Source of the DNA: Planctomycetota bacterium
Lineage (GTDB): Bacteria; Planctomycetota; J058; JAJDCQ01
Direction of reading: 5' to 3'
Assembly: GCA_029260755.1 (NCBI GenBank)
Contig: JAJDCQ010000115.1
Coordinates: forward strand, 24,929-88,928
Length of the DNA stretch: 64,000 nucleotides
In this document: piece after piece, positions 23,474 to 62,900 of the stretch
Layout: each line of letters starts with the position of its first letter
Position numbering within the stretch: the stretch's first letter is position 1
Made by a program: the position numbers and the translations under genes
The notes under the pieces: generated by a model
Told to the model about the DNA's origin: nothing
Seen by the model: only the letters and a program-made list of their open reading frames with translations
Databases searched by the model: none

Positions 23474-23570
23474 ACGAACCGACGCATCGGTCGTCCTCGG
23501 GGGGAGGGCGGCGGCTCGAGTCAGCACGCAGACCTAGCGACGCTCGCTAGATCCTCTTTCGGAGAATGGA

Positions 23571-37099: not shown

Positions 37100-37196
37100 A
37101 ATCAATCCGAGCAATCCGCGAAATCCGCGGTTCGGTCTCTCTCGGCGTTGAGCCCAGTGGGAACCGCGGATTACGCGGATTACGCGGATTGCGAGT
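37100..37196. repeat. Palindromic intergenic repeat element, copy 3
   Basis: atcAATCCGAGCAATCCGCGAAATCCGCGG, then the core ttcggtctctctcggcgttgagcccagtgggaa, then CCGCGGATTACGCGGATTACGCGGATTGCGAG. Confidence 0.7.
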
Positions 37197-42775: not shown

Positions 42776-42935
42776 GCTGGCCCCCTGCTCCTTCGAGCGG
42801 GCGCGCGGGCCGAAGCCGGGCGCGCCTTTGCTAAGCAACGATTGGAGGATCGCGAGGCTCTCCGCCCCGCGATCCTCGCGCTCCGATCGACACGGAGCCC
42901 GCCTGTCAGTCCATTCCGCGTCGACGCGCGGTCGT

Positions 42936-44012: not shown

Positions 44013-44346
44013 GGGTGTGTTCCTCCGTGGATCGACAGGCCGCGCTCGGCGTCGTCCCGGTCAGGGGCGACGAGCTGGTCCGTCCGATGGTGTCCTGGAT
44101 GGGCAACAGCTCCCGGGTCCAGCGCGGCCCTGCGCGCAGACCGGGTGGCATGGACGTGCGACGCCCGAGAGGCGCTCGTATTCGCAGGATTCTAGTGAGC
44201 CCGCGGCGACGGGTCAACCGGCGCGACGACCGCGCATGGAATCGACATCCTTATGTAGCAGAATCGTTTGTGCGAATCATCTCGCGGATTCTCGCGGCTC
44301 CGAGCCGGCCCGAGGCGGCTTTCGGCGACGCCGAGCCCGTCCTAGA

Positions 44347-45267
44347 ATGATGACATCCCGCGACCCCTGCCCCGGAGCGCCCGTGACGACCCCCGCCGCC
44401 AACTTCGGCGATCGCCTCGCCGACGCCGTCCGCGCCCGCGGCCCCGCCTGCGTCGGGATCGACCCGCGCCCCGACTGGCTCCCCGAGGACGTCCTGCGCG
44501 AGGGCGACATCGGCGCGACGCTCCGCGCCCACGGCGAGGCGGTCGTCGAGGTGGTCGCCGACGCCGCCTCCACCGTGAAGCTCAACTGCGCCTTCTTCGA
44601 GCGGCACGGCGCCGACGGCTGGTCGGCGATGCTCTCGATCGCCCGCGCCGCGCGGGCGCGCGGCCTCGTGACGATCGCCGACGCCAAGCGCTCCGACATC
44701 GGGCCGAGCGCCGCGGCCTACGCCGACGCGTTCCTGGGCGATGACTCGCCGTTCGACGCCGTCACGGTCGTCCCGTGGCTCGGCGAGGACGGCCTGACCC
44801 CGTTCATCGACGCCGCCCACCGAGGCGGTCGCGGGATCTTCTGCGTCCTGCGGTCGTCGAACCCCGGCGCCGAGCGGCTCCAGGAGGTCGAGACGGCGGA
44901 CGACGGGCCGCTCTGGGAGAGCCTCGGACGCACCCTCGCCGCGGCCGAGAAGCCCGGGTCGAGCGGCCTCGGCGCCCTCGGCGCGGTCGTCGGCGCGACG
45001 GTCCCCGACGCGGTCGCCCGCGCGCGCCGCGTCCTGCCGGCCGGCTGGCTGCTCCTCCCGGGCTACGGCGCGCAGGGCGGCGGCGCGGCGGCGATCGTCC
45101 CCGCCCTCGACGAGGCCGGCCTCGGGGCGATCGTCAACGCGTCCCGTTCGGTCGTCTTCCCGTGGCGTGCGGACGGCGAGGCGCCCGGGCCGAGCTGGCG
45201 CGACCGGGTGCGGGCGGCGCTCGACGCCATGAACTCGGACCTGGGCTCCGCGACCCGTCGCGAGTGA
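44347..45267 (+). CDS. pyrF: Orotidine-5'-phosphate decarboxylase, type 2 (long form)
   Basis: ACVGIDPR, KLNCAFFE and IADAKRSDIG motifs. ~306 aa from the ATG at 44347. Confidence 0.8.
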   Translation: MMTSRDPCPGAPVTTPAANFGDRLADAVRARGPACVGIDPRPDWLPEDVLREGDIGATLRAHGEAVVEVVADAASTVKLNCAFFERHGADGWSAMLSIARAARARGLVTIADAKRSDIGPSAAAYADAFLGDDSPFDAVTVVPWLGEDGLTPFIDAAHRGGRGIFCVLRSSNPGAERLQEVETADDGPLWESLGRTLAAAEKPGSSGLGALGAVVGATVPDAVARARRVLPAGWLLLPGYGAQGGGAAAIVPALDEAGLGAIVNASRSVVFPWRADGEAPGPSWRDRVRAALDAMNSDLGSATRRE

Positions 45268-45335
45268 ACCGAACGCCTCGCCCCGGGTTACCGGGCGATG
45301 GCCCGCGCGCGAGAGACGAGCCCCGAAGAGACCCC

Positions 45336-47735
45336 ATGCCGGTGAACGACGACGCGAAGAGGGTCGGCTCCGACCCGGCCGCCGGCGCCCGCGCCCTCGC
45401 GCTCGGCGCGCTGGCCGCCTTCGTCGTCGTCCGCCTCCACGTCTCGGGGCTCGCCAGCCACTTCGACTCCCCGAGCACGAACGCGGCGATCGAGACGATC
45501 GGATGGATGGCGGTCGCCCTGACCCTCCTCGCGTCGCTGCTGGGGAGCTCGGCGCCGGGGGGCCCGACGCGGCCCGCGGGGAGGTCGACGATCCCGGCGA
45601 TCGTTCCGGTCGGACTGATCGCCTTCGTCGTCGTCTGCGCGGTCAGCGCGCTGCGCGCCCCGCACGCCGATGTCGCCATCCGGACGGCGGTCTCGTGGAC
45701 GACGCATCTCGCCGTCGCGGCGGCCGCGTTCGCGCTCGTCCGCTCCGATCGGGCCGCCCTCCGCGAGGTCGTCGCCCTCCTCGGCGCGACGGCGCTCAGC
45801 GCCGCCCTCCTCGGCCTCTACGAGTACACCGTCGAGTGGGACGAGATGCGCCGGTTCTACGAGACGGCCGAGGGGCGGGCGGCCGCGTTCGTCCCCGCGA
45901 ATCTCCGGGGCGCGTTCGAAGGTCGCCTCTACGAGCGGGCCGCGATGGGTCCGTTCCTGATCTCGAACCTCCTCGGCGCGTTCATCGCGGTCGCTGCGCC
46001 CTTCGCGATCGCCCCGCTCACCGCCCTCGCCGCTCGACCGGGCCGCGCCGGCGGCGTCCGCGGCGTCGCGATCGCCGGGCTCGTCGCGACCGTCGCGATC
46101 GGGGTCGCCGGCCTGCTGGTGACGAAGTCCAAGGGCGCCCTCATCGCGGCGGCGGCCGCCGCCGCGGTCGCCGCGCTCGTCGTCGCCTTCCGGAAGAGCC
46201 GGCGGACGGGGGCGATCGCCGGCGCGGTGCTCGTCGTCGCGGGCGGCGGCGTCCTCGGCGCCGGCATCCATCGCTGGCGAACGCTTCCGGACTCCGGCGT
46301 CGCCCTCTCGCTCCAGTATCGCCTCGAGTATGCCCAGGCCGCCCTCGGGATGGCCGCGGACCACCCGCTCGGCGGCGTCGGCCTCGGCAACTTCGGGGAC
46401 CGGTTCTCGGAGTATCGGCCGGACCGAGCCGAGGAGACCCGGTTCGCCCACGACGACGCGCTCCAGGTCCTCGCGGAGACCGGGGCGCCCGGGATCATCG
46501 CGATCGCCATCGCCGTCGTCGGCGTGCTCGTCGTCCTGCTCCGCGGTCTGACCGGACCGACCAGGGCCGAGCCCGACGGCGAACGAGCGGCCGAGCCCGG
46601 CGCGGGAGCGGTCGACGCGGCGAGCGCGTCGATGCCCCCCGCCGCGACCACGGCCGCGACGACGTCCGCCGCGACCGCGCCGGGGAGTGCAGGAGCGGGC
46701 GACCGCAGCCCGTTCGTCGCCACCCTCGTCGGCATCCTCTTCGGCGCGACGACGCTGGTCGGACTGCTCGGTCGCTACGCCGAGCCCGACGCGGCGCTCC
46801 GGGTGACGGCCATCGTGCTGCTCGCCTGGGCGTCGCTGCGCCTGGCGGTCGCCGCCCTCGCCGACGCTGCCCCGCTCGCGCTCCGGATCGCCGCCCTCTC
46901 GAGCGCGGCCGCGCTCGGGGTGAGCAGCCTGCTCGACTTCCCGTCCTACGCGCACGGCCTCCAGGCCGCCGCCGCGCTCGTGATCGCGATCGGGCTCGCC
47001 CTCGCGCCGGCGGCGTCGGCAGCCTCCGAGCGGCCCGCGTGGCAGCCGCCGCGCGCGGTGATCGGCGGGCTCGCCCTCGGCGCCACGGCGATCGCGCTGG
47101 TGCTCTGCCTCGGCTATCTGCGGCCGCTCCTGGCCGCCGACCTCGCCGCGGTCGACGGCCGGGAGGCGTTCCGCGAGGCGCTCACGCCGAGCAGCGTCCT
47201 CGACCCCGACGCTCCCGACGAGGCGAGCCGGCGCGAGCGCCTCGACGCGGCCGCGGTGAGCTACGCCGAGGCCCGCGCCCACTGGCCTCGCGGGCTGCGC
47301 CTCGCCCTGGGCGAGGCGACCGCGCGCCTCGCCCGACACAAGATCGGGCGCGACCCGGGCGACCGGGCCGCGGCGATCGCCGCCCTCGACGACGCGGTCG
47401 CCCTCGCGCCCTACCACGCGGGCGTCGCCGCGCGCCTCGGCGAGGCGCACCTGGCCGGCTGGCGGCCGTGGCCCGAGAGCGTCGAGCCGCCGCCGCCCGA
47501 GGCGATCGAGGCCTACGAGCAGGCGATCACGCTCTACCCGAGCCACCCCGGCTACCGCCTGACGACGGCGATCCTGCTCGACGCCGCGGGCCGACGGGAG
47601 GAGGCGGCCGAGCAGGCGCGCGAGGCGCTCCGGATGACCGACCGGGTGCGGAACTACCGGCTGCTGCTCGGGCCGGGCGAGCGAGCGCTCGCGGCGTCGA
47701 TCGCGGCGGGGGAGGGGATCCCCGGTCGTCGGTGA
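45336..47735 (+). CDS. O-antigen ligase (Wzy_C/WaaL-like) polytopic membrane protein with a C-terminal TPR-like domain
   Basis: Multiple TM helices. Wzy_C signature region PLGGVGLGNFGDRFSEYRP…AHDDALQVLAETGAPG. C-terminal helical repeats. ATG at 45336. Confidence 0.65.
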   Translation: MPVNDDAKRVGSDPAAGARALALGALAAFVVVRLHVSGLASHFDSPSTNAAIETIGWMAVALTLLASLLGSSAPGGPTRPAGRSTIPAIVPVGLIAFVVVCAVSALRAPHADVAIRTAVSWTTHLAVAAAAFALVRSDRAALREVVALLGATALSAALLGLYEYTVEWDEMRRFYETAEGRAAAFVPANLRGAFEGRLYERAAMGPFLISNLLGAFIAVAAPFAIAPLTALAARPGRAGGVRGVAIAGLVATVAIGVAGLLVTKSKGALIAAAAAAAVAALVVAFRKSRRTGAIAGAVLVVAGGGVLGAGIHRWRTLPDSGVALSLQYRLEYAQAALGMAADHPLGGVGLGNFGDRFSEYRPDRAEETRFAHDDALQVLAETGAPGIIAIAIAVVGVLVVLLRGLTGPTRAEPDGERAAEPGAGAVDAASASMPPAATTAATTSAATAPGSAGAGDRSPFVATLVGILFGATTLVGLLGRYAEPDAALRVTAIVLLAWASLRLAVAALADAAPLALRIAALSSAAALGVSSLLDFPSYAHGLQAAAALVIAIGLALAPAASAASERPAWQPPRAVIGGLALGATAIALVLCLGYLRPLLAADLAAVDGREAFREALTPSSVLDPDAPDEASRRERLDAAAVSYAEARAHWPRGLRLALGEATARLARHKIGRDPGDRAAAIAALDDAVALAPYHAGVAARLGEAHLAGWRPWPESVEPPPPEAIEAYEQAITLYPSHPGYRLTTAILLDAAGRREEAAEQAREALRMTDRVRNYRLLLGPGERALAASIAAGEGIPGRR

Positions 47736-47783: not shown

Positions 47784-50700
47784 GTGAAGACGACGGCTCG
47801 CGCTCCGCTCGCCGAGCGTGCTACGATGCCTCCCGTCATGGCGATGAGGCCGGTCGAAGCGAGCGCCCAGGAGCTTCTCGAGCTCGCTTTCAGCGATGAC
47901 CTCACCGGCCTTCGCAACCGCCGCTACTTCTATCACTACCTCTCCGAGAAGATCGAGGCCGCCGGCCCCCAGCCCCAGCCGCTCGCGCTCTGCCTGATCG
48001 ACCTCGACTCGCTCAAGCCGGTCAACGACACCCTCGGCCACGTCGCCGGCGACCGGCTCCTCGCCCGCGTCGCCCACCTGATCCGCGACACCGTCGGCGA
48101 CGAGGGGCTCGCGGTCCGCTACGCCGGCGACGAGTTCGCGATCGTGCTCCCCGGCCGGACCGTCGACGAGGCGGTCGCCCTCGGCGAGCGCGTCCGCGAG
48201 CGCGTCGCGAGCGACCCGTTCTCCGCCCTCGACCTCCCGCCGACGATTCGACCGACCCTCTCGGCCGGCGTCGCCGTCTTCCCGCACGACGCGACCGGGT
48301 GCGAGGAGCTCGTCGATGTCGCCGATCAGGCCCTCTACGCGAGCAAGCGCGCCGGCAAGAACCGCGTCACCCGCGCCGGCTCCGCCGCCTCCGCCGCGCC
48401 CACGGGACGATCGCCGACCGCCGCGACGACGGGCCCGGGCGCGGGCGCCGCCCCGCCACGCGCCGTCGACCGAACCGTCACGCCGGGTCGGGCGCCCCGG
48501 CCGACCGCCGATCCGGGACGCGGCTCGCCCCTCCCGGTCGCCCGACCGCTCATCGGACGCGACGCGGCCGTCTTCGAGGCGATGACCGCGCTCGACCGGC
48601 TCACCCGGCGCGAGCCCGGCCTCGCCCTGCTCTTCTGCGGGCCGAGCGGCCGGGGCAAGTCGCGGATGTGCCGCGAGGTGGCGCGCCTCGCGACGAGCCG
48701 CGGGCTGGCGGTCACCGCCGGCGGCGGGCACGAGGCCGACCGGGGGGAGCCGTTCCGCGCCTTCGCCCGCCTGATCGACAAGGTGCTCGGCGACGACCCC
48801 GTCATGAGGCGCCGCGTCGAGGCCGAGGTCGCGCCGTTCCGCCGGGCGGTCCTCACCGAGATCCTCTCGGAGATCTCCGCGGACCGGAGCGACGCCATCG
48901 ACGGCGCCGCGTCCGACGACGAGAGCGAGACCCTGGCCGCCGTCCGCGGGATGACCGACGTCCTCGCCGTGATCGGGCGCGTCCGACCGACCGTCCTGAT
49001 CCTCGACGACCTCGAGCACGCCGACCGCGGATCGCTCTCCGTGATCGTCCGCTGGGTCGAGACGCGGGGACGCGGCGTCCTCCTCGTGGGGTCGGCGAAC
49101 GCGGCGCTCGGCGGCCAGGAGTGGAGCGAGGCGGCGAAGCGCATCGGTGCCCGCCGGGCGGAGGCCCGGATCGTCGAGCTCTCCGCCCTCGACCGTCCCC
49201 GGACATCGGCCCTGATCGCCTCGTCGTTCCGGGGGAGCACCCCGCCCGACGCGGTCGTCGATCGCGTCTTCACGCTCACCCGCGGCGAGCCGGTCCACAT
49301 CGAGGCGGCGGCGCGGTCGCTCTCCACCTCGGGCGGCGTCGTCCTGCGTCCGAGCGGCGATGCCGAGTTCGGACCGGGCGCGGCGGCCGGCCTCCCGGCG
49401 TCCCGCGAGCAGCTCGTCGAGGCCGACCTCGCGGCGACCGACGGCCCGGTCCGCGAGCTCCTCGAGCAGGCGAGCGTGATCGGAAAGCGCTTCGATCTCG
49501 AGCTGCTCCGCCGCGTCGTCCTCCGGAGCGAGGGCGAGGCGCTCGACCTGCTCGAGGAGGCGCGCCGCCTCCACCTGCTCCGCGACGCCCTCTGGAGCGC
49601 GGGCGCCGACTTCGAGTTCGCGAGCCCGCAGCATCGCGAGCACACCTACCGCCGCACCGATCCCTACCGACGGCGGCGGACGCATCTGATCGTGGCGCAA
49701 GCGCTCGCGGCGCGGCTCGGATCGGACGCGACGGGGCGCGGCGCCGCCCTGATCGCGTGGCACAGCCGTCAGGGCGGGGACCTCGAGGCGGCCGCCGACC
49801 TCGAGGCGATCGTGGCCGCCCGTCGCGACCGATTGACCGACCTGCGCGACCTCGCGGCTCCGCCCGAGCCGCGACCGGAGACCGACGCCGACGGGAGCCG
49901 CGAGGGCGGGTCGGTCGACGCGGCCGTCGCGGTCGAGCTCGTCGCCGGGCTCGCCGCGGCGGTCCGGGCGCACAAGCTCTATCCGCCCGGATCGCGGAGC
50001 TGTCGCGACGCGCTCGCCACCCTCGCGCGCCGGGTCGGCGAGGCGCACGCCGAGGCCAGCGCCATCACCCTCACCGCCGATGGTCCGCGGCTGGCCTGTA
50101 ACGGTCAGCCGCTCCGCGATCCCGCGCCTCCGCCGGTCGCGACGCGGTGGTTGATCGAGACGCTCACCGGCGGCGAGGCCAGCAGCCTCACCATCGCGGC
50201 GCGGGTGAGCCGCGACTCGCTCGCCAGCCTCGTCGCCGTCCTCGCCGAGACGCGGCGCGGGCCCGAGGGTCGGGGTCAGGCGGACCTCGAGGGCCGACTC
50301 GGCGAGCTCGTGCGCGTCTCGGCGACCGCCGCCGGCGCGGCCGAGCGTCCTCGAGCGACCCCGCCGCCGGCCCCGGTCGGGCCCGCGCCCGGTCCGCGCG
50401 CCGCGCCGGCCGACGACGCCCTCTCACCACCGCCCGCCTCGAGCCGGCCGCCCGCGGTCGACCTCTTCGGCCTTCCGCCCGAGCAGCTCGTCGATCGGCT
50501 CGGGCGGCTCGTCACCGACGAGCGCCTCGACGTCGCGCGGTCGGAGCTCGAGCGGCTCGGCGCCGCCCTCGCCGAGAGCGCGCGGCGCGGCGCGGCGGCC
50601 GAGCGCCTCGGCGCGATCATCGACCGCGCCCCTCCGGCGCTCCGCGACACCGCCCGATCGATCCTCCGCGAGCGCCTCGGCGACGCGCTCGGCATCGAGA

Positions 50701-51617
50701 GCGACGAGGCGCGCTTCGACGCGCTCCTCGACCTCGCCGACCGTGCCGTCCCCGCCCTCCTCGCGCGAGGCGACGTGGCCGGCGCGACGCGGATCATCTG
50801 GGCGGCCGGCCGACGCGCCCGCGAGGGTCTGGTCGAACGCGGGCGCCCTCGCCTCGAGCGCTGGCTCGGCGGCGCGTCCGGCGAGCCGATCTGGACCGCC
50901 CTGGCCGAGGGAACCGCGGCGGAGCGCGAGGCGGCTCAGACGCTCCTCGAGGGGGCCGGCGACGCCGCCCTGCCGGGCCTCGTGGCGCTCGCCCGACGCC
51001 CTCTCTCGCCGGCGGGAGAGACGGCCGTCCGGAGCCTCGCCCGCGTCCTGGGCATCGGGGCGGCCGCGGCCCTCGCGGCCGAGATCACGCCGACCCTCGA
51101 CGAGGCGAGCGCCGCCCGCCTCCTCGATCGCGCGCTCGCGGCGGGCGAGGGCGCCGACGCGGTCCTCCGTCGGGCGGCCAGCGCCACCCTCCCCGGCCTC
51201 CGCGCGACGGCGCTCACCCGCGCCGCCGAGCTCGATCCCAAGCTGCTCGTCGAGCTCGCCGGCGCGATCCTGACCGACGCCCCGACCGAGCTCCGCGTCG
51301 TCGCGCTCGACGCGCTCGGCTCCTGCCGCACCGACGCGGCCCGCGACCTGATCCTCGCGACGCTCGCGACCGACGACGGGGACGACGACGTCGCCCGCGC
51401 GTGCTGCGTCGCGCTCGGACGCGCCCCGGACGCCCGCGCGGTCGACCCGTTGATCGCGATCGCCCGCGGCGAGGCATCCGGCGGCGTGCGGGAGGCGTCC
51501 GCCTGGGCGCTTGGCCAGCAGGCCGACCCGCGCGCCCGCTCGGCGCTCGAGGCGCTCGCCGCGGGCGACGATGCGCTCGCCGCGACGGCGCGCCTGCTCC
51601 TCGCCGACGGTGGCTGA
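47784..51617 (+). CDS. Multidomain signalling protein: GGDEF-like domain (AGDEF variant), P-loop NTPase (AAA_16/STAND-like), C-terminal HEAT repeats
   Basis: DLTGLRNRRYF…RYAGDEFAIVLPG marks a GGDEF domain with a degenerate A-G-D-E-F motif. LLFCGPSGRGKSRM is a Walker A. The C-terminus has HEAT/PBS-lyase repeats (…DPLIAIARGEASGGVREASAWALGQ…). Start codon is uncertain (GTG 47784 or ATG 47826/47838). Confidence 0.65.
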   Translation: MKTTARAPLAERATMPPVMAMRPVEASAQELLELAFSDDLTGLRNRRYFYHYLSEKIEAAGPQPQPLALCLIDLDSLKPVNDTLGHVAGDRLLARVAHLIRDTVGDEGLAVRYAGDEFAIVLPGRTVDEAVALGERVRERVASDPFSALDLPPTIRPTLSAGVAVFPHDATGCEELVDVADQALYASKRAGKNRVTRAGSAASAAPTGRSPTAATTGPGAGAAPPRAVDRTVTPGRAPRPTADPGRGSPLPVARPLIGRDAAVFEAMTALDRLTRREPGLALLFCGPSGRGKSRMCREVARLATSRGLAVTAGGGHEADRGEPFRAFARLIDKVLGDDPVMRRRVEAEVAPFRRAVLTEILSEISADRSDAIDGAASDDESETLAAVRGMTDVLAVIGRVRPTVLILDDLEHADRGSLSVIVRWVETRGRGVLLVGSANAALGGQEWSEAAKRIGARRAEARIVELSALDRPRTSALIASSFRGSTPPDAVVDRVFTLTRGEPVHIEAAARSLSTSGGVVLRPSGDAEFGPGAAAGLPASREQLVEADLAATDGPVRELLEQASVIGKRFDLELLRRVVLRSEGEALDLLEEARRLHLLRDALWSAGADFEFASPQHREHTYRRTDPYRRRRTHLIVAQALAARLGSDATGRGAALIAWHSRQGGDLEAAADLEAIVAARRDRLTDLRDLAAPPEPRPETDADGSREGGSVDAAVAVELVAGLAAAVRAHKLYPPGSRSCRDALATLARRVGEAHAEASAITLTADGPRLACNGQPLRDPAPPPVATRWLIETLTGGEASSLTIAARVSRDSLASLVAVLAETRRGPEGRGQADLEGRLGELVRVSATAAGAAERPRATPPPAPVGPAPGPRAAPADDALSPPPASSRPPAVDLFGLPPEQLVDRLGRLVTDERLDVARSELERLGAALAESARRGAAAERLGAIIDRAPPALRDTARSILRERLGDALGIESDEARFDALLDLADRAVPALLARGDVAGATRIIWAAGRRAREGLVERGRPRLERWLGGASGEPIWTALAEGTAAEREAAQTLLEGAGDAALPGLVALARRPLSPAGETAVRSLARVLGIGAAAALAAEITPTLDEASAARLLDRALAAGEGADAVLRRAASATLPGLRATALTRAAELDPKLLVELAGAILTDAPTELRVVALDALGSCRTDAARDLILATLATDDGDDDVARACCVALGRAPDARAVDPLIAIARGEASGGVREASAWALGQQADPRARSALEALAAGDDALAATARLLLADGG

Positions 51618-51698: not shown

Positions 51699-51789
51699 CG
51701 TAATCCGCGTAATCCGCGTAATCCGCGGTTCCCACTGGTTCAACGCCGAGAGAGACCGAACCGCGGATTTCACGGATTGCACGGATTGA
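51699..51789. repeat. Palindromic intergenic repeat element, copy 4 (inverted orientation)
   Basis: cgTAATCCGCGTAATCCGCGTAATCCGCGG, then the core in reverse-complement orientation relative to copies 1 and 3, then CCGCGGATTTCACGGATTGCACGGATTG. Confidence 0.7.
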
Positions 51790-51890
51790 TTGTTCCTGGA
51801 ACGGACGTAGGCGTCGGCGACGAGCGCAATGCGAAACGGGCCCGATCGTGTCGGGCCCGTCGCGCATCTCGATCGACGTGGGCCGACGCG

Positions 51891-52808
51891 TCAGTCGCCC
51901 GCGAGCAGCTTCTCCACCTCGGCGTCGAGGTCCTTCGCGGCGACGTCCATCGCCACGACCTCACCCTTCCCGTTCACGATCATCAGGAACGGGACGTGGA
52001 TGATGCCCATCTCATTGTAGAGCGCGGCGTTGAAGCCCTCGCCGTCGTAGACGACGTTCGGGAAGGTCAGCCCCTTCTCATCGACGACCTTCTTCGCGAC
52101 GGCGCCGCTGCGGTCGACCGAGAGACCGATCGTCTGGAGACCCTTGTCGCGGAACTTGTCATGGACCCGCTGGACCAGCGGGAGCTCCGACATGCAGTGG
52201 CCTCACGTGCTCGCCCAGCTCATGATGATCTTCGGCTTGCCGTCGGCGAGCTCCACCCGGAGCGTGTCGTCCGCTCCCGCGACCGGTCCGTAGACGACCC
52301 GGACCTGCTTCATGATGCGATCGTAGAACTCGACGTAGCGAGGATGACGGATCTCGCGCAGCATCCGTCCGAGGAAGAGACGGACCGACGGCTCGACGTC
52401 GGGGCCGAGGCCGTCCTTCTCCGCCCGTTCGAAGACGGCCATCCCCTCCTTCACCCGGTTGCCCGACGCGGCGAACCGGACGACCTGGATCGTGAGGATG
52501 ACCTCGGCCCGCTTCCCGCCCTCGTCCGCGCCGTTGTCCGCCCGCCACGCGCGGAGGCGGTCGAGGACGCCCTGCAGCTCGGCGCTCATGTTTCCGAGCG
52601 TTCTCGTGACGCCCTTCTCGTCGCGCGCCATCGAGAACTTCCGGGCCTCCTCGCGATACTTCTCGCTGACCTCCCGCATGGCCGCGTCCGCCTCGGCGGG
52701 CGTGAGCGGTGTCTCGTCGTCGGCGCGGCTCGGAACGAGCGCGCCGCCCGCGAGGGCGACGAGGACGACGACCGTCGCGACCGTCGTCGGCACTCGGAGT
52801 CTCCTCAT
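51891..52808 (-). CDS. Candidate selenoprotein: secreted thioredoxin-fold (TlpA/redoxin-like) protein with an in-frame TGA (Sec) replacing the first Cys of CxxC
   Basis: ORFs 52203..53081 and 51891..52193 are in the same frame, separated only by the TGA at 52203-52205. Read-through gives …KPKIIMSWAST-U-GHCMSELP…, matching the redoxin motif W-A-x-x-C-x-x-C with U at the first Cys. A SECIS-like hairpin lies 20 nt downstream. The N-terminal signal peptide starts MRRLRVPTTVATVVVLVALAGGA after a ggag RBS. Confidence 0.5.
52166..52182 (-). other. SECIS-like stem-loop immediately downstream of the in-frame UGA
   Basis: The mRNA reads UGA + 20 nt, then CCCGCUG-GUC-CAGCGGG: a 7-bp GC-rich stem with apical GGUC, reminiscent of the E. 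coli fdhF SECIS apical loop. Confidence 0.4.
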
Positions 52809-52849
52809 GAGATGCTCCTCTCTCCGGACCGGGCTCCCGGAACGGAAGC

Positions 52850-55495
52850 CTAGTCGAGATCTCGCGCCTTGCGGAGGAGGACGTTGAGCTCGCCCTGCCC
52901 CTCGGACTCGAGACCGACCCTCTGGATGAGCGCCGTGCGCTGGTCCTCGCTCGGCTCGCCGGCCACGCCGGCGTTCGCGAACGTGAGATCGACCAGCCGT
53001 CCGACGAGCTCGCCGTAGACGCCGTAGGCACCGTCGAGGACGGCGCGCTCCTCGTCGGTCAGCGGAACCGACTCGGGCCACTCGATCGGCGGGGGCGGCT
53101 CGATGAAGGCGGCCTCGCCCATCTCGAAGGGATCATCGGGCTCCGCCCGCGGCGCCTCGAGCGGGGCGAACCCGGGCGGCAGCTCCGAGGTCGGCTCGGC
53201 GCGCGGTGCGAAGCCCGGCGCGAGCTCCTCCTCGGCGGCCGGAGCCGCCCGGGCTTCGAGCGGAACCGGGGCTCCGAAGGGCGAAGGCGCCGACGGGGCC
53301 ACCGGCGGCGCCTCGGCGGCCGGCGGCTCGAGCGGCGCGGGCGCGCCGAAGGGCGAGGGCTCCGACGGCGCGACGGGCGGCGCCTCGGCCGCGGGGGCCT
53401 CGGGCGGCGGGGCGCTCGCCGCGCCGACCGGACCGGCATCGAACGCGAACTCGCCGAGCTGCGGCTCGAGCGCGCCGGTCTCCGGTGCGGACTCGGGAGC
53501 CGGCTCTGCGGCGGGCATGTCCGCCTGGAAGTTCCCCACCCGCGACGGCGTCAAGTCCGCCGGAAGGATCGGCTCGGCGATGTCGTAGCCGAAGGGGCTC
53601 GGCGCGGCCGGGGCGACGCCGGGGGGCGGCGGCGCGCCGGGAGCGCCCACGGCGGGCGCCGCCGGACCGCCGAGCTCGAGCGGCACGTCGAGGTTGAAAT
53701 CTCCGTCGAAGCCGCCGCCGAGGTCGCCGAGGTCGAGCCCCTCGAGCCCGAAGCCATCGCCGCCTGCGGGCGCGCCGGCCGGCGCCCCGAACGGCGGCGC
53801 TCCTCCCGGCGGAGGCCCGAAGCCCTGCGGCGGCGCTCCGAAGGGATCCGGGGCCGGCGCGCCGTAGGGATCGGCAGGCGGTGCGCCGTGAGGATCCGCC
53901 GGCGGGGCGGCGTAGGGAGCGCCGGGCGGAGCAGCGCCGTAGGGATCGGGCGGCGCCCCGAAGGGGTCGGCCGGGAGTCCGTACGGATCCGCCGGAGGAG
54001 GAGCGCCGTGCGGAGGAGCGCCATACGGATCAGCCGGCGGCGCGCCGTACGGATCCCCGTAGGGGTTCGGCGGAGCGCCATACGGATCCGCCGGCGGGGC
54101 GCCATACGCGTGCGCGGGGGGCGCGCCGTACGGGTCGGCCGGCGCCCCGTAAGGATTCGGCGGAGCTCCGTACGGGTCCGCCGGCGGCGCTCCGTACGGA
54201 TCCGCGGCCGGCGGCGCACCGAACGGAGAGGGCGCGGGAGGGGGCGAAGGGAACGGCGCCGCTCCGAAGCCTCCGAAGTCGCCCGGGGACGACGCGGGGC
54301 TGGCGAAGTCTCCCGGCGAGCTGGTCGGAGGAGGCGCGAAGCCGCCCGCCCCGAATCCCGGCGGGCCCGCCGGCGGGCCCGCGGCGGCGAACCCCGGCGG
54401 CGCGGCCGGCGCGAAGCCGGGCGGGGCGGATCCTGCCGAGGGCGGGAATCCAGCGCCGGGCGCCGGCTCGCTCGGTTTGCCTCGCTCCTCGAGGAGCTCG
54501 GCCGGAAGGGGCGCCTCGATCGACTGCTGCATGTAGAGCTGCGCGAGCTTGGCGTCGCTGGTGAACGGATCCTCGTCCGAGACGGCCTCGGGCGGGGCGC
54601 TGAACGAGGGGCCCGGTCCTCCGCCCGCGGGCGGGAACGCGCTGGGGTTGGCCGGGAAGCCGCCCGACGATGGATCGAACGGGAGCGGCTGGGCCATCGG
54701 CGCCTGCGCGAACGGATTGCCGGCCGCGTTCGGATCGGCCGGAAACGCGGCCGCGGCCTGATCGAGCGGGTTCACGCCCGGCGCCGGCGAGAGCGGAAAG
54801 CCGCCGCCCGGATCCGGCGCGTACTGACCGGCGGGCGCGTCGAACGGCATCGCCCCGAAGTCGGCGGGACCGCCGCCCGGAGCGCCGGGGGCGCCGGGAG
54901 GAAATGGAGCACCGAACCCGGGTGAGGCCGGGTAGCCGGGAGCGGGGGGCGGGGCGCCGTAGGCGCCGGGCGGCGGCGGCGCCGGCACCGTCGCGAACGG
55001 ATCCTGATCCGCTCCGGGCGCGGGACCGGGAACGGTCTGGAACGGGTCGTTCGCGCCCGGACCGGGGGCGAAGGGATCGCCCGAGGCGAACGGATCGCCG
55101 GCGGCGAACGGCGCACCGGGCGGGGGAGCCGGGGGGATCGGCGGCGCGACCGGACCGGCGAGGTGACTCATCACGTCGTCGAGGGCGCGCGTCGCGTCGG
55201 GAACCGCGGCGGGCCGGACGAAGCCCTGCGGCCATCCGACCTGGGGACCTTCGCCGAGGAGACCCTTCGGAAACGGGTCGCCGGGTCGGAGGCTCGCCAT
55301 CTCCCGGCCGAGCGACTCGAGGCTCGCGCTGTCGCCTCGGGCGCGCGCGATCTGTGCCTCGACGTAGAGCGCGCCGAAGAGCTCCTCGGTCTTTCCGCGC
55401 TGACGACACGCATCGGCGACCTGATGCGCCTTCTCGAAGAGCCCGTCGATTCCTTCAGCGGTCGGATCGATGATCTCGAGGAGCCCGAGGGTCAT
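52850..55495 (-). CDS. Proline/glycine-rich protein with >20 tandem DPYGAPP(A) repeats between a structured N-terminal and a structured C-terminal domain
   Basis: ~880 aa. N-terminal ~120 aa (MTLGLLEIIDPTAEGIDGLFEKAHQVADACRQRG…). A central P/G/A/D/Y low-complexity region with (A)DPYGAPP(N/A) repeats is encoded by 24-nt tandem units at ~53820-54220. The ordered C-terminal domain is …RAVLDGAYGVYGELVGRLVDLTFANAG…. Confidence 0.55.
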   Translation of the reverse strand: MTLGLLEIIDPTAEGIDGLFEKAHQVADACRQRGKTEELFGALYVEAQIARARGDSASLESLGREMASLRPGDPFPKGLLGEGPQVGWPQGFVRPAAVPDATRALDDVMSHLAGPVAPPIPPAPPPGAPFAAGDPFASGDPFAPGPGANDPFQTVPGPAPGADQDPFATVPAPPPPGAYGAPPPAPGYPASPGFGAPFPPGAPGAPGGGPADFGAMPFDAPAGQYAPDPGGGFPLSPAPGVNPLDQAAAAFPADPNAAGNPFAQAPMAQPLPFDPSSGGFPANPSAFPPAGGGPGPSFSAPPEAVSDEDPFTSDAKLAQLYMQQSIEAPLPAELLEERGKPSEPAPGAGFPPSAGSAPPGFAPAAPPGFAAAGPPAGPPGFGAGGFAPPPTSSPGDFASPASSPGDFGGFGAAPFPSPPPAPSPFGAPPAADPYGAPPADPYGAPPNPYGAPADPYGAPPAHAYGAPPADPYGAPPNPYGDPYGAPPADPYGAPPHGAPPPADPYGLPADPFGAPPDPYGAAPPGAPYAAPPADPHGAPPADPYGAPAPDPFGAPPQGFGPPPGGAPPFGAPAGAPAGGDGFGLEGLDLGDLGGGFDGDFNLDVPLELGGPAAPAVGAPGAPPPPGVAPAAPSPFGYDIAEPILPADLTPSRVGNFQADMPAAEPAPESAPETGALEPQLGEFAFDAGPVGAASAPPPEAPAAEAPPVAPSEPSPFGAPAPLEPPAAEAPPVAPSAPSPFGAPVPLEARAAPAAEEELAPGFAPRAEPTSELPPGFAPLEAPRAEPDDPFEMGEAAFIEPPPPIEWPESVPLTDEERAVLDGAYGVYGELVGRLVDLTFANAGVAGEPSEDQRTALIQRVGLESEGQGELNVLLRKARDLD

Positions 55496-55615: not shown

Positions 55616-58465
55616 TCACCGGGAGGGGAGACGCCGGCGCACCTCGATCCGGCGAATCAGATAGCTCGTCCGCGGCCGCCCGCCCGACTCGGGCTCGATC
55701 CGGAGCCGGTTCTCGCCGGGCTCGACGAGGTCGGTCACATCGAATGCGTCGGCGCGGAACGCGCGGGTGAGCGGGGAGAGCTCGCGGACGACGACCTGAC
55801 CGTTGACGCGGAGGGTGATCGGGGCGTAGCCGATGTAGCGACGATCGCGCCAGACGTAGCGCCCGGTCGCGTGGGTGAGGACCAGGCTCACGCGTTCGGC
55901 GTCTTCCTCGACGGTGAAGGAGGCCTCGATCGCGTGGCCGGGCTCGACGAGGGCGCGCGAGCCGTCGGTCTGATTCGACCACGCTCCGTCGAGATCATCC
56001 TCGGACCGATCGATGTGGGTCGCGGCGAGGCGGGCGCCCGGGGCGGGCGTGACGTCGCGCGGGTCGCCGACCCGCCAGAACGTGAGGGCGCGGATCATCG
56101 TCGCGGGCGCCGGCCTCACCTCGAGGGAGATGCCGCGGAGCGACGCCCACTTGAACGCCCTGGTGAAGTCGTAGCCGTCGGGCACCCAGCTCTCGGTCGT
56201 CCGCGCGTAGGCGGCCTGGAGGGTGTAGAGACCGCCCGCCTCCGTCGAGCACCGGAGTCGAACGAGGAGATCCTGCCCGGCGAAGCCCGACCCCGTCGCA
56301 TCCCAGAGGGTCGCGCGGTCGCGCTGGCCGGGGCGCCCTCCCTGGAACGCGTCGGCGCGCTCGATGACCGAGCCGCCCTGCCGCACGGTCGTCTCGGCGC
56401 GCGCCCGATCCTCACCGGCGTCGAGGAGGAGGTCGACCATCGACCAGTCTCCGACGTCCCGGAGGACGAGCCCGACCTCGCCGGCGACGAAGCGGTCGCG
56501 CCAGGAAGGATCGAGGTCGGCGCGGAGGCCGATCCCCTCGCCGCGGACGACGCGCCACGCTCCGTCCTCGGGCGTCGGCGCGAGGGCCCAAGCGACGAGC
56601 GGATCGCCGGCATCGACGCGGAGAGCGCCGTGCCCCACGAGCGCGGCGAGCGCGGCGCCGACCGCGTCGATGACGGCCTCGACCCGACGGGCGAGCGGCT
56701 CGGAGACGACCGCGCTCCGATCCTCGAGACCGGCGCGGAGCCGGGTCGCCCGCTCCTCGAGGTCGCGCCCGCGCCGGAGCTGCCGCCGGAACGCCTCGTC
56801 GACCGCCCGGCCGTCGATCGTCACCGGGTCCGCGCCGAGGAGCGCTCCGATCAGTCTCCGCGCGTCGAGGGCGAGCTCGAGGAGCGCGACGGCGTCCTCG
56901 CCGAGCACGTTCGTCGTGCTCGTCCGCTCGAGGGCGCGGCGCGCCTCATCGGGGCGTCCCGTGACGCAGCTCTCGATCGCCCGGTCGACCTCGACCGCGA
57001 TCGCGAGGATCGGCGCGTGCTCCACGGCGCCGCGTTCGATCGCGAGCTCTCGGGCTCGGCGCCCGGCGTCGGCGTCGCCCGCGGCGGCGCGCTCCAGGGC
57101 CAGCCACGCGAGGAGGTCGCGCGCCAGGCCTGGCTCGCGACGGGCGAGGCGGGCGTCGAGCTCCTCGGGGCTCGAGGCGCCCAGCGCCGCGAGGGCGCGG
57201 CACCCCTCCGCGAGCCGGCCGCCGCCGGCCAGATCGGCGAGGCGCGTCCGGATGATCGCGAGCTCGTCGGTCTCGGGCGGCGTCGGGTCGATCGGCGCGG
57301 GGCTCACCCCGCTCGCCGGTTGCCGGACCGCGACGAACGCGACGGCGCCGACGACGCAGACGGCCGCGGAGACGGCGATCAGCAGGGCGACCGGGAGCCG
57401 CGCGCCGTCGCGCTCCGGCGTGCGTCTCGAGTCGAGGCGCGCGGACCCCGAGGGGGGCTCGCGTCGCGCGTCCGTCGAGTCGCCGCGCGGAGGCGCGGGC
57501 GCGAACCCAGGCGCGGGTGCGGCCGCGGGGGGCGGAGGCGGCGCGCTCCGGCGGGGCGGGGCGAGCAGGGTCGAGGGGTCCTCGGCGACGATCGCCCGCT
57601 CGATCGCGTCGGCGAGCGCGATGGCGGAGGGCGGTCGCTCCGAGGGGTCCTTGGCGAGGGCCCAGAGGCAGGCGGCGTCGAGAGCGTCGGCGACCCGGTC
57701 GCCGAGGTGCTCCCGCGCGCCCAGGTTCGAGCATCGGCTCGGCGGGTCGGGGACGTGGGTGATGATCGTCGCGATGAGGCGCGCGGCGCTCGCCCCCGCG
57801 AACGGGGAGGTGCCCGCGATGGCGTAGTAGAGCGTGGCGCCGAGGCCGTAGACGTCGCTCGCGACGGTCGCGACGCTGGCGCCGTCGATCTGCTCGGGGC
57901 CCATGTACTCGAGGGTGCCGATGGCCATTCCGGTCCGGGTGAGCTCCTCGACGACCGCGCGATCGACGACCTTCCCGAGGCCGAAGTCGAGGAGGCGGGC
58001 GCGACCGGCCTGATCGATGAGGACGTTCGCCGGCTTGAGGTCGCGGTGGAGGATGCCGTGGCCATGGGCGTGGTGGAGCGCGCGCGCGGCCGCGGCGACG
58101 GCGGCGGCGTGGGCGCGGACCGACGGCCCGCCGAGGCGCGGGACCCGGCTCTGGAGGGACTCGCCCGCGACGAGGTCCATGACGAGATAGAAGCGGCCGT
58201 CGCCGGTGGCGCCGACGTCGAGGACCGGGACGATGCCCGGGTCGTCGAGGCGAGCGAGGAGGAGCGCCTCGCGCCGGAGCCGGTCCTCGAGGGAGGGATC
58301 GGAGTTCCGGACGACCGTCTTGATGGCGTAGACGCGGCCGCTCGGCTCGTGGCGGGCGCGGTAGACGATCCCCATCCCGCCGCGGCCGAGGATGCCCTCG
58401 ATCACGTAGGCGCCGAGGCGCCCCCCGACCGTGTCGGCCCCGTCGTCGAGGTGAGTGTCGGACAA
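55616..58465 (-). CDS. Serine/threonine protein kinase with TM helix and large extracytoplasmic C-terminal domain
   Basis: Hanks kinase motifs GILGRGGMGIVYRA, AIK, HRDLKPANVLI, DFGLGK. One TM helix (LPVALLIAVSAAVCVVGAVAFVAV) and a ~550-aa C-terminal domain shared with the paralogue at 60021. Confidence 0.8.
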   Translation of the reverse strand: MSDTHLDDGADTVGGRLGAYVIEGILGRGGMGIVYRARHEPSGRVYAIKTVVRNSDPSLEDRLRREALLLARLDDPGIVPVLDVGATGDGRFYLVMDLVAGESLQSRVPRLGGPSVRAHAAAVAAAARALHHAHGHGILHRDLKPANVLIDQAGRARLLDFGLGKVVDRAVVEELTRTGMAIGTLEYMGPEQIDGASVATVASDVYGLGATLYYAIAGTSPFAGASAARLIATIITHVPDPPSRCSNLGAREHLGDRVADALDAACLWALAKDPSERPPSAIALADAIERAIVAEDPSTLLAPPRRSAPPPPPAAAPAPGFAPAPPRGDSTDARREPPSGSARLDSRRTPERDGARLPVALLIAVSAAVCVVGAVAFVAVRQPASGVSPAPIDPTPPETDELAIIRTRLADLAGGGRLAEGCRALAALGASSPEELDARLARREPGLARDLLAWLALERAAAGDADAGRRARELAIERGAVEHAPILAIAVEVDRAIESCVTGRPDEARRALERTSTTNVLGEDAVALLELALDARRLIGALLGADPVTIDGRAVDEAFRRQLRRGRDLEERATRLRAGLEDRSAVVSEPLARRVEAVIDAVGAALAALVGHGALRVDAGDPLVAWALAPTPEDGAWRVVRGEGIGLRADLDPSWRDRFVAGEVGLVLRDVGDWSMVDLLLDAGEDRARAETTVRQGGSVIERADAFQGGRPGQRDRATLWDATGSGFAGQDLLVRLRCSTEAGGLYTLQAAYARTTESWVPDGYDFTRAFKWASLRGISLEVRPAPATMIRALTFWRVGDPRDVTPAPGARLAATHIDRSEDDLDGAWSNQTDGSRALVEPGHAIEASFTVEEDAERVSLVLTHATGRYVWRDRRYIGYAPITLRVNGQVVVRELSPLTRAFRADAFDVTDLVEPGENRLRIEPESGGRPRTSYLIRRIEVRRRLPSR

Positions 58466-60020: not shown

Positions 60021-62900
60021 CTACCAGCGAATCTCGACGCCGTAGAACCAGTACCCGTGAGTGGCCTGGGCATCAGCGGCGACCTCGAGACGGAACGAGT
60101 TCGTCCCCGGGCGCACGAGGTCGGTGATCTCGAAGAAGCCCGAGCTCGTTCCGGCGTCTCCGTTCGGCGAGAACGTCGAGGCGACCTCGACGCCGTTCAC
60201 CGACGCCGTCACCGGGGCGTAGGAGGGCATCCGGCCGCCGAGCGCGGCGAGATGCTTGAGGACGAGACAGACCGGCCCCCGGCCCGGGGGCCCCTCGAAC
60301 TCGAACTCGATGAGCGTGCCTTCGGGACCGAAGGCGAGGGCGTTGTCGCGTGGCCAGGCGTGTGGGGCCAGCCGGACCGCGTCGCGGTCGATGCAGCCGG
60401 TGACCTTCAGCCCCGGCTTCGCGAAGGTGACGGCGCCGCCACCGCTCGACTCGCTCCCGAGGAACGCGTCGACGCCGGGCCAGGGATTCTTCGCCCGCCT
60501 CAAGACGATCTCACGAACGAGGGTCTTCGGCGCGGGGAGGACGCGAAGATCGCCCCGCTCCAGCTCGGGCCATGAGGCGACGGCGTAGAGCGCCTTCGGC
60601 GAAACGACGGCGACGCCGCGCTCGGGCCACGCCCGCGCAACGAGATCCTCGCCGGTCCCCCCCGGCGCCGGGTACCGCGACAGCTCCACCCGTCCGGCCG
60701 TGCCTCGCGGCGCGCTCGAGATCGGGGCGGCGCGCACGAGCACGCCGGCGCCGGCCGCCTCGATGAGCGCCCGGGGATGCTCACCCCCGGAGGACGCGAG
60801 CCGCACCTCGATGGCGACGAACCGCTCCGCGTTCGGCACGACGAGGTCGAGGCTTCCCGACTCGAGCGTGGGGCCGTCGGTCTCGGCGGCGAGGCCGATC
60901 CCGTCGTTCAGTCGCTGCCAGCGAGACGGATCGGCGCCGAACCCGGCGAGGATCAGCCCCGCGTCGTCGATCCCCGAGAGGCGCAGGTCGTGGCTGCCGT
61001 AGAAGCTCTTGGCGTGGCCAAGGACTCGTCGAGCGGCCCTCTCGACGCGCTCCCGGACCGGTCCCGGAGCCTCCGCGATGCCCTTCGTGACGCGGGCGGT
61101 GAGCGCCCGCGCAGCGGTCAGGAGCGTCACCGGATCCTCGGCCAGACGATACACGTCAGCCCCGGCGATCGACCCGGCATCGATGACTCCCACCGGCGGC
61201 GCCTCGCCGCTGATCGTCGCGACGATCAGACCGCGGCCGGCCACGAGAGCGGCGAACGCGTCGTGGACGTCGCTCCCGATCACATCGGTGAGGGACGGCT
61301 CTCCGAGCGCGTCGGCTGCTCGCCTGGGATCGCCGCGCGTCGCCTCGTCGATGAGCGTCAGGTAGGCATTCGCGAGACCGACGATGAGGCTGGCGCGGCC
61401 TTCGGCGCCCGCCGTCGCGGCCGCGACGCGGCCCCCCTCGAGGTCGCCGGCGACGGCGCGCTCCAGCGCGAGCCACGCGAGCAGCGCTCCGCGCATCTTG
61501 GCGGGGCGCTTGCTGCGCGCGTCGATGAGCCGGTCGATTTCGGCGACATCCCGGACGTCGAGGGCGCGGATCGCGTCGAGGCCGGCGGCGAAGTCCCTCT
61601 GCGTGAGCGCCTCCTCGACGGCGTCGTGGGCGCGGTCGGCAGCGTCCGGCGGGGGGGGCCCCGGATCGGGCGGGTCGGGCCGATCGGGTGGGCCGGTCCC
61701 GGCGCCCGAACCGGCGGCGCCCGAGCCTCCGGCGATGTCGGGGCCCGGGTCGGGCGGCTCGCCGCCGCCGCCGATGGCGAGGAGCCCCACCGCAACCAAG
61801 AGGAGCGCGCCGACTCCGATCGCGATGAAGAGGGCCGAGTTCGACTGCTCGGGAAGACGGACCGTCGTCTCGCGCCCGTCGGCGGTCCGGACGACGCGAA
61901 CCCTGCCCGACGATGAGCTCGTCCGAGAGATCTTGCCCGAGCCTCTGCTCACTCGCCGGCGTCCCGTGGTCCGGGTCGCCCGGCGGGCCTCGGCGATCGC
62001 TCGCTCGATCGCGTCGGCGAACGCGGCGGCCGTCTCGTGGCGGTCGTTGGGCTCCTTCGCGAGCGAGGTGAGGCAGACCTCGTCCAGGCGCGCGGCCAGG
62101 CGGTTCGCCTCGCCCCGGTGCTTGCGGATCTCGGAGGGCGGATCGGGCTCGCGGTTGAGGATCCCCGAGATGATGTTCGCCGCGCTCGCGCCCTGAAACG
62201 GCGGCCGCCCCGCGATCACCTCGTAGAGGGACGCCGCGAGCCCGTAGATGTCGGCCGCGCCGGTCAGCTCGCTCGACTCGCCGAGCTGCTCGGGCGCCAT
62301 GTAGGCGAAGGTCCCGATCACCATCCCGGCCGCGGTGAGCGCGTGTCGGTTGGAGTCGGGGTCGCCCGGGGACGTCTCCGAGATCGCCTTCGCGAGGCCG
62401 AAGTCGAGGATCTTCGGCGGCCCCGAGGTCGGAACGAGGATGTTCGCCGGCTTGATGTCGCGATGGAGCACGCCGAGGCCGTGGGCGTGGTTGATCGCCC
62501 GGGCGACCTCGGCGATGAGCCGCGCCCCCGCCGCCACCTCCAGATCACCGCTTCGAGCGAGCGTCTTGAGGTCCTCGCCCTCGACCAGCTCCATGGCGAT
62601 GAACGGCCGTCCATCCGCCATGCGCCCGGTGTCGATGAGCTCGACGACGCTCGGGTGATCGAGCCGGGAGATGACGTTCGCCTCGCGCCGGAGGCGCTTC
62701 TCGAGGCCGGGGTCGCCGGCCTGGAGCAGCATCTTGATCGCCACGCCCTCGTTCGTCCGGGTGTGCCGACCCTGATAGACGACGCCCATCCCGCCGCGGC
62801 CGAGGACGCCCTCGACCGCCCAGGGACCGATCATGGTCCCGGGGGGGAGCTCGTCGCCGCTGCCACTGCTGCTGCCGGTCTTGCGCGTGTCGCCGTGCAT
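60021..62900 (-). CDS. Serine/threonine protein kinase with TM helix and large extracytoplasmic C-terminal domain (paralogue of 55616..58465)
   Basis: GVLGRGGMGVVYQG, AIK, HRDIKPANILV, DFGLAK. TM helix ALFIAIGVGALLLVAVGLLAI. The C-terminal domain shares LLAWLALERAxAGD and a terminal …YAP(I/V)T…VNG…DVTDLV(E/R)PG(E/T)N… region with the other kinase. Confidence 0.8.
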   Translation of the reverse strand: MHGDTRKTGSSSGSGDELPPGTMIGPWAVEGVLGRGGMGVVYQGRHTRTNEGVAIKMLLQAGDPGLEKRLRREANVISRLDHPSVVELIDTGRMADGRPFIAMELVEGEDLKTLARSGDLEVAAGARLIAEVARAINHAHGLGVLHRDIKPANILVPTSGPPKILDFGLAKAISETSPGDPDSNRHALTAAGMVIGTFAYMAPEQLGESSELTGAADIYGLAASLYEVIAGRPPFQGASAANIISGILNREPDPPSEIRKHRGEANRLAARLDEVCLTSLAKEPNDRHETAAAFADAIERAIAEARRATRTTGRRRVSRGSGKISRTSSSSGRVRVVRTADGRETTVRLPEQSNSALFIAIGVGALLLVAVGLLAIGGGGEPPDPGPDIAGGSGAAGSGAGTGPPDRPDPPDPGPPPPDAADRAHDAVEEALTQRDFAAGLDAIRALDVRDVAEIDRLIDARSKRPAKMRGALLAWLALERAVAGDLEGGRVAAATAGAEGRASLIVGLANAYLTLIDEATRGDPRRAADALGEPSLTDVIGSDVHDAFAALVAGRGLIVATISGEAPPVGVIDAGSIAGADVYRLAEDPVTLLTAARALTARVTKGIAEAPGPVRERVERAARRVLGHAKSFYGSHDLRLSGIDDAGLILAGFGADPSRWQRLNDGIGLAAETDGPTLESGSLDLVVPNAERFVAIEVRLASSGGEHPRALIEAAGAGVLVRAAPISSAPRGTAGRVELSRYPAPGGTGEDLVARAWPERGVAVVSPKALYAVASWPELERGDLRVLPAPKTLVREIVLRRAKNPWPGVDAFLGSESSGGGAVTFAKPGLKVTGCIDRDAVRLAPHAWPRDNALAFGPEGTLIEFEFEGPPGRGPVCLVLKHLAALGGRMPSYAPVTASVNGVEVASTFSPNGDAGTSSGFFEITDLVRPGTNSFRLEVAADAQATHGYWFYGVEIRW

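Follow-up and report, generated by a model that had tools for sequence, protein, structure and literature searches.

A Predicted Selenocysteine-Containing TlpA-Like Protein with an Orphan Helical Domain in an Uncultured Planctomycetota Lineage

The Locus

The stretch of DNA analysed here (the window) covers 64,000 nucleotides of a metagenome-assembled genome of a Planctomycetota bacterium (contig JAJDCQ010000115.1, positions 24,929 to 88,928). On its minus strand, positions 51891 to 52808 form a single reading frame of 305 codons that runs from the ATG at 52808-52806 to a final TGA stop at 51893-51891, and the sole interruption of this frame is a further TGA, codon 202 (52203-52205). Translation of the interval agreed with the initial annotation, which had described two open reading frames (ORFs) in the same frame parted only by this TGA. 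The gene is held in NCBI and Logan records as two unnamed proteins, one of 201 residues (P0001; 52206-52808) and one of 100 residues (P0010; 51891-52193), and such a split into two hypothetical ORFs is a typical mis-annotation of selenoprotein genes. Judging from its sequence and from that of its relatives, 51891-52808 is almost certainly one functional gene for a predicted exported selenoprotein.

The interrupting codon stands in the nucleotide context GKPKIIMSWAST-TGA-GHCMSELPLVQRVHDKF and in the protein context KIIMSWAST-stop-GHCMSELPLVQR, and reading through it gives SWAST-U-GHCMSELPLVQR, with selenocysteine (Sec, U) as the putative residue at the first, nucleophilic position of a U-G-H-C motif. 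The resolving Cys of this UxxC motif, Cys205, is encoded by a TGC at 52194-52196 that is invariant across the four clades described below. The G+C content of the window is 70.7%. As TGA ends 16 of the 37 genes in the window, the stop of the gene studied here included, it is an ordinary stop codon in this DNA and the genetic code is standard, not reassigned. An independent Logan assembly of the locus was 100% identical over 6115 nt.

Domain Organization of the Predicted Product

Residues ~171 to 305 (51894-52298) form a TlpA/ResA-type thioredoxin-fold domain, as seen from Pfam, from sequence matches in the Protein Data Bank (PDB), and from invariant columns, and both the Sec codon and P273, a conserved candidate for the cis-Pro, fall within it. 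When Cys was substituted at the TGA, residues 184-296 matched Thioredoxin_8 (42 bits, cut-off 27), Redoxin (40 bits, cut-off 26.6), and AhpC-TSA (39.4 bits, cut-off 26), and all three matches spanned the TGA uninterrupted. The protein belongs to the TlpA-like thioredoxin fold (Thioredoxin_8/Redoxin/AhpC-TSA; cd02966), with C/UxxC at the N-terminus of helix 1, and the closest solved structures in the PDB sequence search were thiol:disulfide oxidoreductases of the TlpA/ResA type. In an alignment with six Cys homologues the TGA column was the first Cys of WxxxCxxC, and Cys was also found at this column in the tblastn matches from genome and metagenome collections. The initial annotation had put the TGA at the first Cys of a redoxin motif, and this is upheld by the alignment and by the Pfam matches that run across the codon.

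Back-translated pattern scans of genome and metagenome contigs returned distant Cys homologues only, in Bacteroidota, Planococcus, and three metagenome contigs. Scores against the NCBIfam equivalogs stayed far below the cut-offs for ResA (NF002854, 46 versus 170 bits), DsbE(CcmG) (TIGR00385, 24 versus 123 bits), and TlpA (NF047696, 19 versus 230 bits). Judged by these scores, the thioredoxin-fold protein resembles ResA, DsbE, and TlpA and is an orthologue of none of them.

Ahead of this domain, a signal peptide is predicted for residues 1-29 (52722-52808), with a probable cleavage site between MRRLRVPTTVATVVVLVALAGGALVPSRA and DD. This N-terminus was read by eye as signal-like, with an n-region RRLR, a hydrophobic core, and a c-region SRA directly before DD; a hydrophobic segment opens every orthologue, and the AlphaFold confidence (predicted local distance difference test, pLDDT) was <50 for residues 1-30. 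The AlphaFold model, made for the N-terminal fragment only and from a seven-sequence alignment, had a mean pLDDT of 69, with blocks mostly of 78-91 for residues 31-140 and of 66-69 for residues 141-170. It predicts six helices (37-60, 64-92, 96-115, 119-131, 135-153, and 156-168), which make up an orphan domain resembling tetratricopeptide repeats (TPR) at residues 37-168 (52305-52700). The helical domain matched no Pfam family, and a Foldseek comparison with the PDB gave TPR and helical-repeat resemblances that were non-significant (E >= 0.25), with weak sequence matches of a pentatricopeptide-repeat-like (PPR-like) kind. The helices are followed in the model by three beta strands (residues 171-197) that are part of the thioredoxin fold. 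Since the thioredoxin strands begin at about residue 171, the TGA sits inside the thioredoxin domain. The initial annotation had placed an additional domain of 200 residues behind a signal peptide: the predicted signal peptide and the extra domain both stand, and the size does not, the modelled domain being residues 37-168.

Conservation of the TGA in Distant Orthologues

The N-terminal part was searched against protein collections of 1.84 billion and 5.8 billion clusters. A word-indexed search with the N-terminal two-thirds returned only the protein's own 201-residue fragment. An exhaustive HMMER scan of the 1.84 billion representatives found three remote homologues of 202, 199, and 208 residues at 27-31% identity, aligned to their last residue, and four others, 199-208 residues long, came from a profile search of the 5.8-billion-cluster collection. 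The two collections thus hold seven homologues of the N-terminal part, all of about 200 residues and all with the same endpoint. A full-length Cys orthologue carrying the N-terminal domain was found in neither collection.

Eight orthologous contigs (L009-L016) were examined at the nucleotide level, from JGI (3300030620), ENA (ERZ27256807 and two scaffolds of ERZ23495206), and Logan (SRR27277814, SRR27277816, SRR28208099, and DRR683875). The TGA was present at the same column in all eight contigs, which come from at least seven samples, within the motif W-[AED]-S-[TG]-U-G-[HAT]-C, and no orthologue had TGC or TGT at this column. In each of the seven contigs that are long enough, the frame runs on through G-[HAT]-C-R-x-E-L-P-L-V-[QE]-R and 104-114 thioredoxin codons to a real stop. 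Together with the window, the sequences fall into four clades (three further ones), with an amino acid identity between clades of 28-38%. The ratio of nonsynonymous to synonymous substitution rates (dN/dS) on the 3' side of the TGA was 0.20-0.56 in close within-clade pairs, similar to the 5' part, and the downstream thioredoxin frame is under purifying selection. Three codons past the TGA the window has a Met where every other orthologue has Arg, so there is no conserved restart codon after the TGA. A shared TGA with an intact frame at 28-38% identity makes an inherited nonsense mutation unlikely, as such a mutation would not keep the frame. The codon comparison asked for in the initial annotation therefore gave TGA throughout and no TGC, and neither of the two outcomes that it had named as damaging to its proposal, a separate gene boundary in the orthologues or further disrupting mutations beside the same TGA, was encountered in any orthologue or in the seven long-enough contigs, respectively.

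The orthologues also differ in a second Cys position. In two of the four clades (L011-L015) an extra conserved Cys follows FPN (window residue ~252) in the form FPN[IL]C-DG; the window protein (FPNVVYDG) and L009 (FPNIVEG) lack it. This Cys may have a further redox role or a structural one.

A Hairpin Downstream of the TGA

A putative bacterial selenocysteine insertion sequence (SECIS) hairpin has its core at 52166-52182 on the minus strand, either as a 7-bp stem CCCGCUG/CAGCGGG with the loop GUC (52173-52175) or as a 6-bp stem with the loop GGUCC. Its base lies 20 nt past the UGA, the hairpin takes up the stretch 20-36 nt downstream of it, and the loop starts 26-27 nt past the UGA. The apical hairpin of this gene is of the GCUGGUCCAGC type, and the motif GCTGGTYSAGC was found once in the window. 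The hairpin with a GGUC loop about 20 nt downstream that the initial annotation had taken to fit bacterial SECIS geometry was thus recovered, and it is conserved in the orthologues. In all seven sequences the stems were of 6-7 bp with a loop GUC/GUU closed by G-C, or GGUCG, the energies were -9.8 to -11.2 kcal/mol, and the register was the same, with the loop fixed 26-27 nt past the UGA.

The published model of bacterial SECIS (bSECIS) elements asks for a loop of 3-9 nt, a stem of 4-16 bp, a distance of 16-37 nt from the UGA, and a minimum free energy <= -7.5 kcal/mol (PMC13188914). It also places a G within the first two positions of the loop, in the pattern N1-G-[G/U]-N-N2 (PMC13188914). The hairpin agrees with every one of these constraints in all seven sequences. 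Paired cells amounted to 96% in the named structure versus 25-46% in slid registers, the helix was recovered by RNAalifold, and a compensatory change from C-G to U-A was seen at the basal pair in the L009/L010 clade. Synonymous sites gave a stronger signal than covariation. Among the four clade representatives, no stretch of eight codons in the gene was more invariant in its nucleotides than codons +6 to +13 past the TGA, which coincide with the hairpin; third positions were invariant at 75% in these codons versus 17% gene-wide, and outside the hairpin the codons for Gly, Ser, and Val varied freely at the third position.

Alternative Explanations

Several observations weigh against reading codon 202 as Sec. 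No selA, selB, or selD was detected with Pfam among the ~50 ORFs of the window, and ARAGORN found no tRNA-Sec, or any tRNA, in its 64 kb. A scan of the window for other selenoprotein candidates, as in-frame TGA sites flanked on either side by coding signal, gave antisense artefacts only, a weak negative as the thresholds of the scan also missed the site at 52205. As for the hairpin, 4.9% of the codons in called genes of the window precede an equally stable hairpin with the right geometry and a G at the loop start; the fold z-score of the 69-nt stretch was -0.48, no better than shuffles; and the covariation, in so few sequences, was not significant alone, with 125 of 500 shuffles reaching it. 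Rfam returned no SECIS or other family at gathering thresholds or in permissive mode, a null that carries no information, since its coverage of bacterial SECIS elements is poor. Finally, a conserved peptide, ELPLVQR, is encoded by the hairpin, whose conservation is thus due in part to the protein. On this point the closest Cys homologue, P0002 (TGC; 43% identical over the domain), served as a control. It has the nearly identical peptide ELPAVQRV, and its best hairpin in the same register has 4 bp and -2.4 kcal/mol, so the hairpin is not a by-product of the peptide. The single-sequence statistics of the hairpin are weak and for this reason are not our primary evidence; it is the comparison with other sequences that raises the hairpin well clear of chance. 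Every distant relative shares both the TGA and the hairpin, and on this ground we consider it highly probable that codon 202 is a genuine Sec codon.

A stop at this position could also have arisen by damage. If a Cys-containing TlpA-like gene had suffered a TGC-to-TGA nonsense mutation and the downstream ORF were its decaying remnant, a single transversion would be enough, and the gene callers would yield separate ORFs of 201 and 100 residues, as they do; nor was Sec machinery seen in the window. We hold this to be extremely improbable, as four clades that share only 28-38% identity have the identical TGA, none of the seven long-enough sequences has a broken frame beyond it, the dN/dS there is 0.2-0.56, and no TGC/TGT orthologue of this architecture was found in the collections searched; nor are the orthologous contigs chimeric or copies of one sequence, since 62-72% of residues differ between clades. 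A sequencing or assembly error would be a natural suspicion for a metagenomic contig, all the more as the NCBI and Logan assemblies are probably from the same reads, and yet the Logan sequence is identical and eight further contigs, drawn from no fewer than seven unrelated samples, carry this TGA too, which leaves this explanation with a vanishing probability. The locus might instead hold two genes, a 201-residue helical protein that stops at the TGA and a separate 100-residue protein starting from the ATG at 52193. An ATG does stand three codons past the TGA in the window, with GAGG 7 nt on its 5' side, and the GTGAGG over the TGA is Shine-Dalgarno-like. However, the Met at 52193 is replaced by Arg in every orthologue with no conserved start past the TGA, frame and register are strictly kept across the junction, and the split would separate beta-1 of the thioredoxin fold from the active-site helix, with loss of the nucleophile; two genes are therefore very improbable. 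The comparative facts and the identical Logan assembly effectively exclude the pseudogene, the assembly error, and the two-gene arrangement.

A further, improbable explanation is read-through of the UGA without Sec, by hairpin-stimulated near-cognate or suppressor decoding (as Trp, Cys, or Gly) or by non-standard decoding in this lineage. Downstream hairpins are generally able to stimulate read-through, and no Sec machinery was seen in the window. Against this, the site is the redox nucleophile of CxxC, where Trp or Gly would abolish activity, and a codon meant for Cys ought to read TGC in at least some of the four clades; moreover, the hairpin, down to the G-[G/U] of its loop, fits the consensus for bSECIS elements of the SelB type, and 16 of the 37 window genes have TGA as their normal stop.

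Genomic Neighbourhood

A Shine-Dalgarno-like GGAGAGAGGAG (52815-52825, minus strand) was read from the sequence 6 nt on the 5' side of the ATG. On the other side of the gene, 32 nt past its stop, a probable terminator was read at 51833-51858 (minus strand) as a GC-rich hairpin, GGGCCCG-ACACGAU-CGGGCCC, followed by GUUUCG; a consensus terminator scan made no call there, because the U-run is short. A palindromic intergenic element also has one copy just 3' of the selenoprotein gene, between convergent genes. The element consists of 2-3 tandem 9-mers CGCGGATTA facing inverted copies and was found at window positions 1404-1492, 15559-15576, 37112-37191, and 51701-51795, with 10 matches at <= 2 mismatches versus 0 expected. 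It may be an element of the repetitive extragenic palindromic (REP) type or a protein-binding array.

The gene directly upstream (52850-55495, minus strand) encodes a proline-rich protein of 881 residues with no Pfam match, and its place next to the selenoprotein gene is conserved. In three contigs (L012:1333-2481, L013:3148-4242, and L016:2-724) the gene directly 5' of the orthologue matches it over the N-terminal 115 residues (52% identity) and at the C-terminus; this relative, of 364-382 residues, overlaps the orthologue. A long proline-rich insert with repeats resembling DPYGAPPA accounts for the 881 residues of the window protein, which is conserved only in the N-terminal ~115 and C-terminal ~70 residues. 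These matches point to a conserved gene pair; the two genes are probably co-transcribed, and the upstream protein is a possible partner of the selenoprotein. Farther away, window positions 40741-47735 share synteny with L013:5297-11732, in the form of a Wzy_C (O-antigen ligase-like) protein, a CsgG/LpoB protein, a protein of 520-587 residues (55% identity), and a DUF1425 protein. The Wzy_C, CsgG/LpoB, and DUF1425 neighbours common to the window and L013 indicate that the contigs bearing orthologues come from related organisms of the same lineage. The SdhB encoded at the edge of the window had its best named matches at <= 66% identity, spread across Eisenbacteria, "Deltaproteobacteria" MAGs, Firmicutes, and Binatia.

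Large signalling proteins flank the gene, namely a GGDEF-AAA-HEAT protein of 1277 residues (47784-51617, plus strand) and two Ser/Thr kinases of ~950 residues (55616-58465 and 60021-62900, both on the minus strand), and no functional link of the selenoprotein gene to these flanking proteins was evident. On the plus strand, positions 16983-24653 encode a multi-haem cytochrome c of 1336 residues, a small CarboxypepD_reg-like protein, a Rieske protein, and a split cytochrome b. The products of this cluster, which lies ~28 kb from the gene, are possible clients of a TlpA-like reductase, a link that was not shown.

Proposed Mechanism

The UGA at codon 202 would be recoded as Sec during translation, the hairpin acting as a bacterial SECIS that would recruit SelB-GTP-Sec-tRNA(Sec) as the UGA enters the A site. 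The predicted product would consist of a signal peptide, the six-helix TPR-like domain, and the TlpA/ResA-type thioredoxin domain. Its most likely function is that of an extracytoplasmic thiol-disulfide (selenenylsulfide) reductase, in which the selenolate of U-G-H-C would be the attacking nucleophile and Cys205 the resolving residue; with Sec in place of Cys the nucleophile would be faster and more resistant to oxidation. The TPR-like domain may serve as a docking module and would probably select the substrate or partner. The reductase could be kept reduced by a membrane electron shuttle of the DsbD/CcdA type; no DsbD/CcdA was detected with Pfam among the ~50 window ORFs. The sequences show the structure of the gene, the conserved UGA and hairpin, the constraint on the coding region beyond the UGA, and the thioredoxin fold; for SelB dependence, export, redox direction, and substrate we infer from the TlpA/ResA/CcmG family and from bacterial Sec insertion in general.

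Taken further, the sequences could represent an undescribed, always-Sec family confined to a sparsely sampled, high-GC, uncultured lineage, in which a Sec-containing TlpA-like domain, an orphan TPR-like module, and a linked proline-rich partner gene would together act as a dedicated redox pathway outside the cytoplasm, dependent on selenium and acting on a specific substrate. In our judgement the case for this whole proposal is evenly balanced.

Comparison with Known Systems

Among prokaryotic selenoproteins, those with a thioredoxin fold and a UxxC motif are the most common kind. As these proteins, TlpA-like ones included, have been known since 2005, the present gene leaves the understanding of Sec biology unchanged. 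By its sequence the family is unannotated and divergent and lies outside every NCBIfam model, and its kind is already well established. The one-selenoprotein reading would correct the annotation of two hypothetical ORFs of 201 and 100 residues, would imply a Sec-decoding trait in an uncultured lineage, and would add a divergent, small, undescribed family to the prokaryotic selenoproteome. This family is unusual in that no Cys orthologue was found and in the fusion of a TPR-like domain to the redox domain, which offers a handle on the substrate.

In the E. coli fdhF SECIS the apical loop is GGUC, and G23 and U24 contact SelB. The present hairpin is like it in its position 3' of the UGA, in the apical G-G-U-C, and in a spacing inside 16-37 nt; unlike it, the present hairpin lacks the bulged U in the upper stem and has a longer spacing (26-27 nt to the loop). 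The protein shares with the Cys-containing periplasmic reductases TlpA, ResA, and CcmG(DsbE) (for example PDB 2lrn, 4nmu, and 1st9) the same fold, the active-site position, and ELP-x-hydrophobic-x-R after CxxC, and by analogy with TlpA/ResA/CcmG the selenoprotein is probably reductive. Those reductases differ from it in having Cys in the place of Sec and in lacking the TPR-like N-terminal domain.

The best selenoprotein-specific match was NCBIfam NF041054 ("ResA-like WAxxUGC motif-containing protein", WAxxUGC_long), which is likewise ResA/TlpA-like and has W-A-x-x-U-G at the Sec. However, the score was 41 bits versus a cut-off of 300, and only the core was matched (query residues 182-288 on profile positions 96-198 of 354). 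The motif is UGC in that family and UGxC here, and the flanking domains differ, which makes the gene a non-member.

A Sec-containing TlpA-like family, of which MGB1650493.1 and MDE0950781.1 are known representatives, entered the literature with the selenoproteome of the Sargasso Sea (PMC1088965), and a 2026 review lists it (PMC13188914). As far as the descriptions allow the two to be set apart, the present family differs from it in the orphan six-helix N-terminal domain and in the motif W-x-S-[TG]-U-G-x-C, with no Cys orthologues of the same architecture found. The two have in common the TlpA-like thioredoxin fold, a Sec that comes first in UxxC and aligns with the Cys of widespread homologues, and a bSECIS element just downstream in the coding region.

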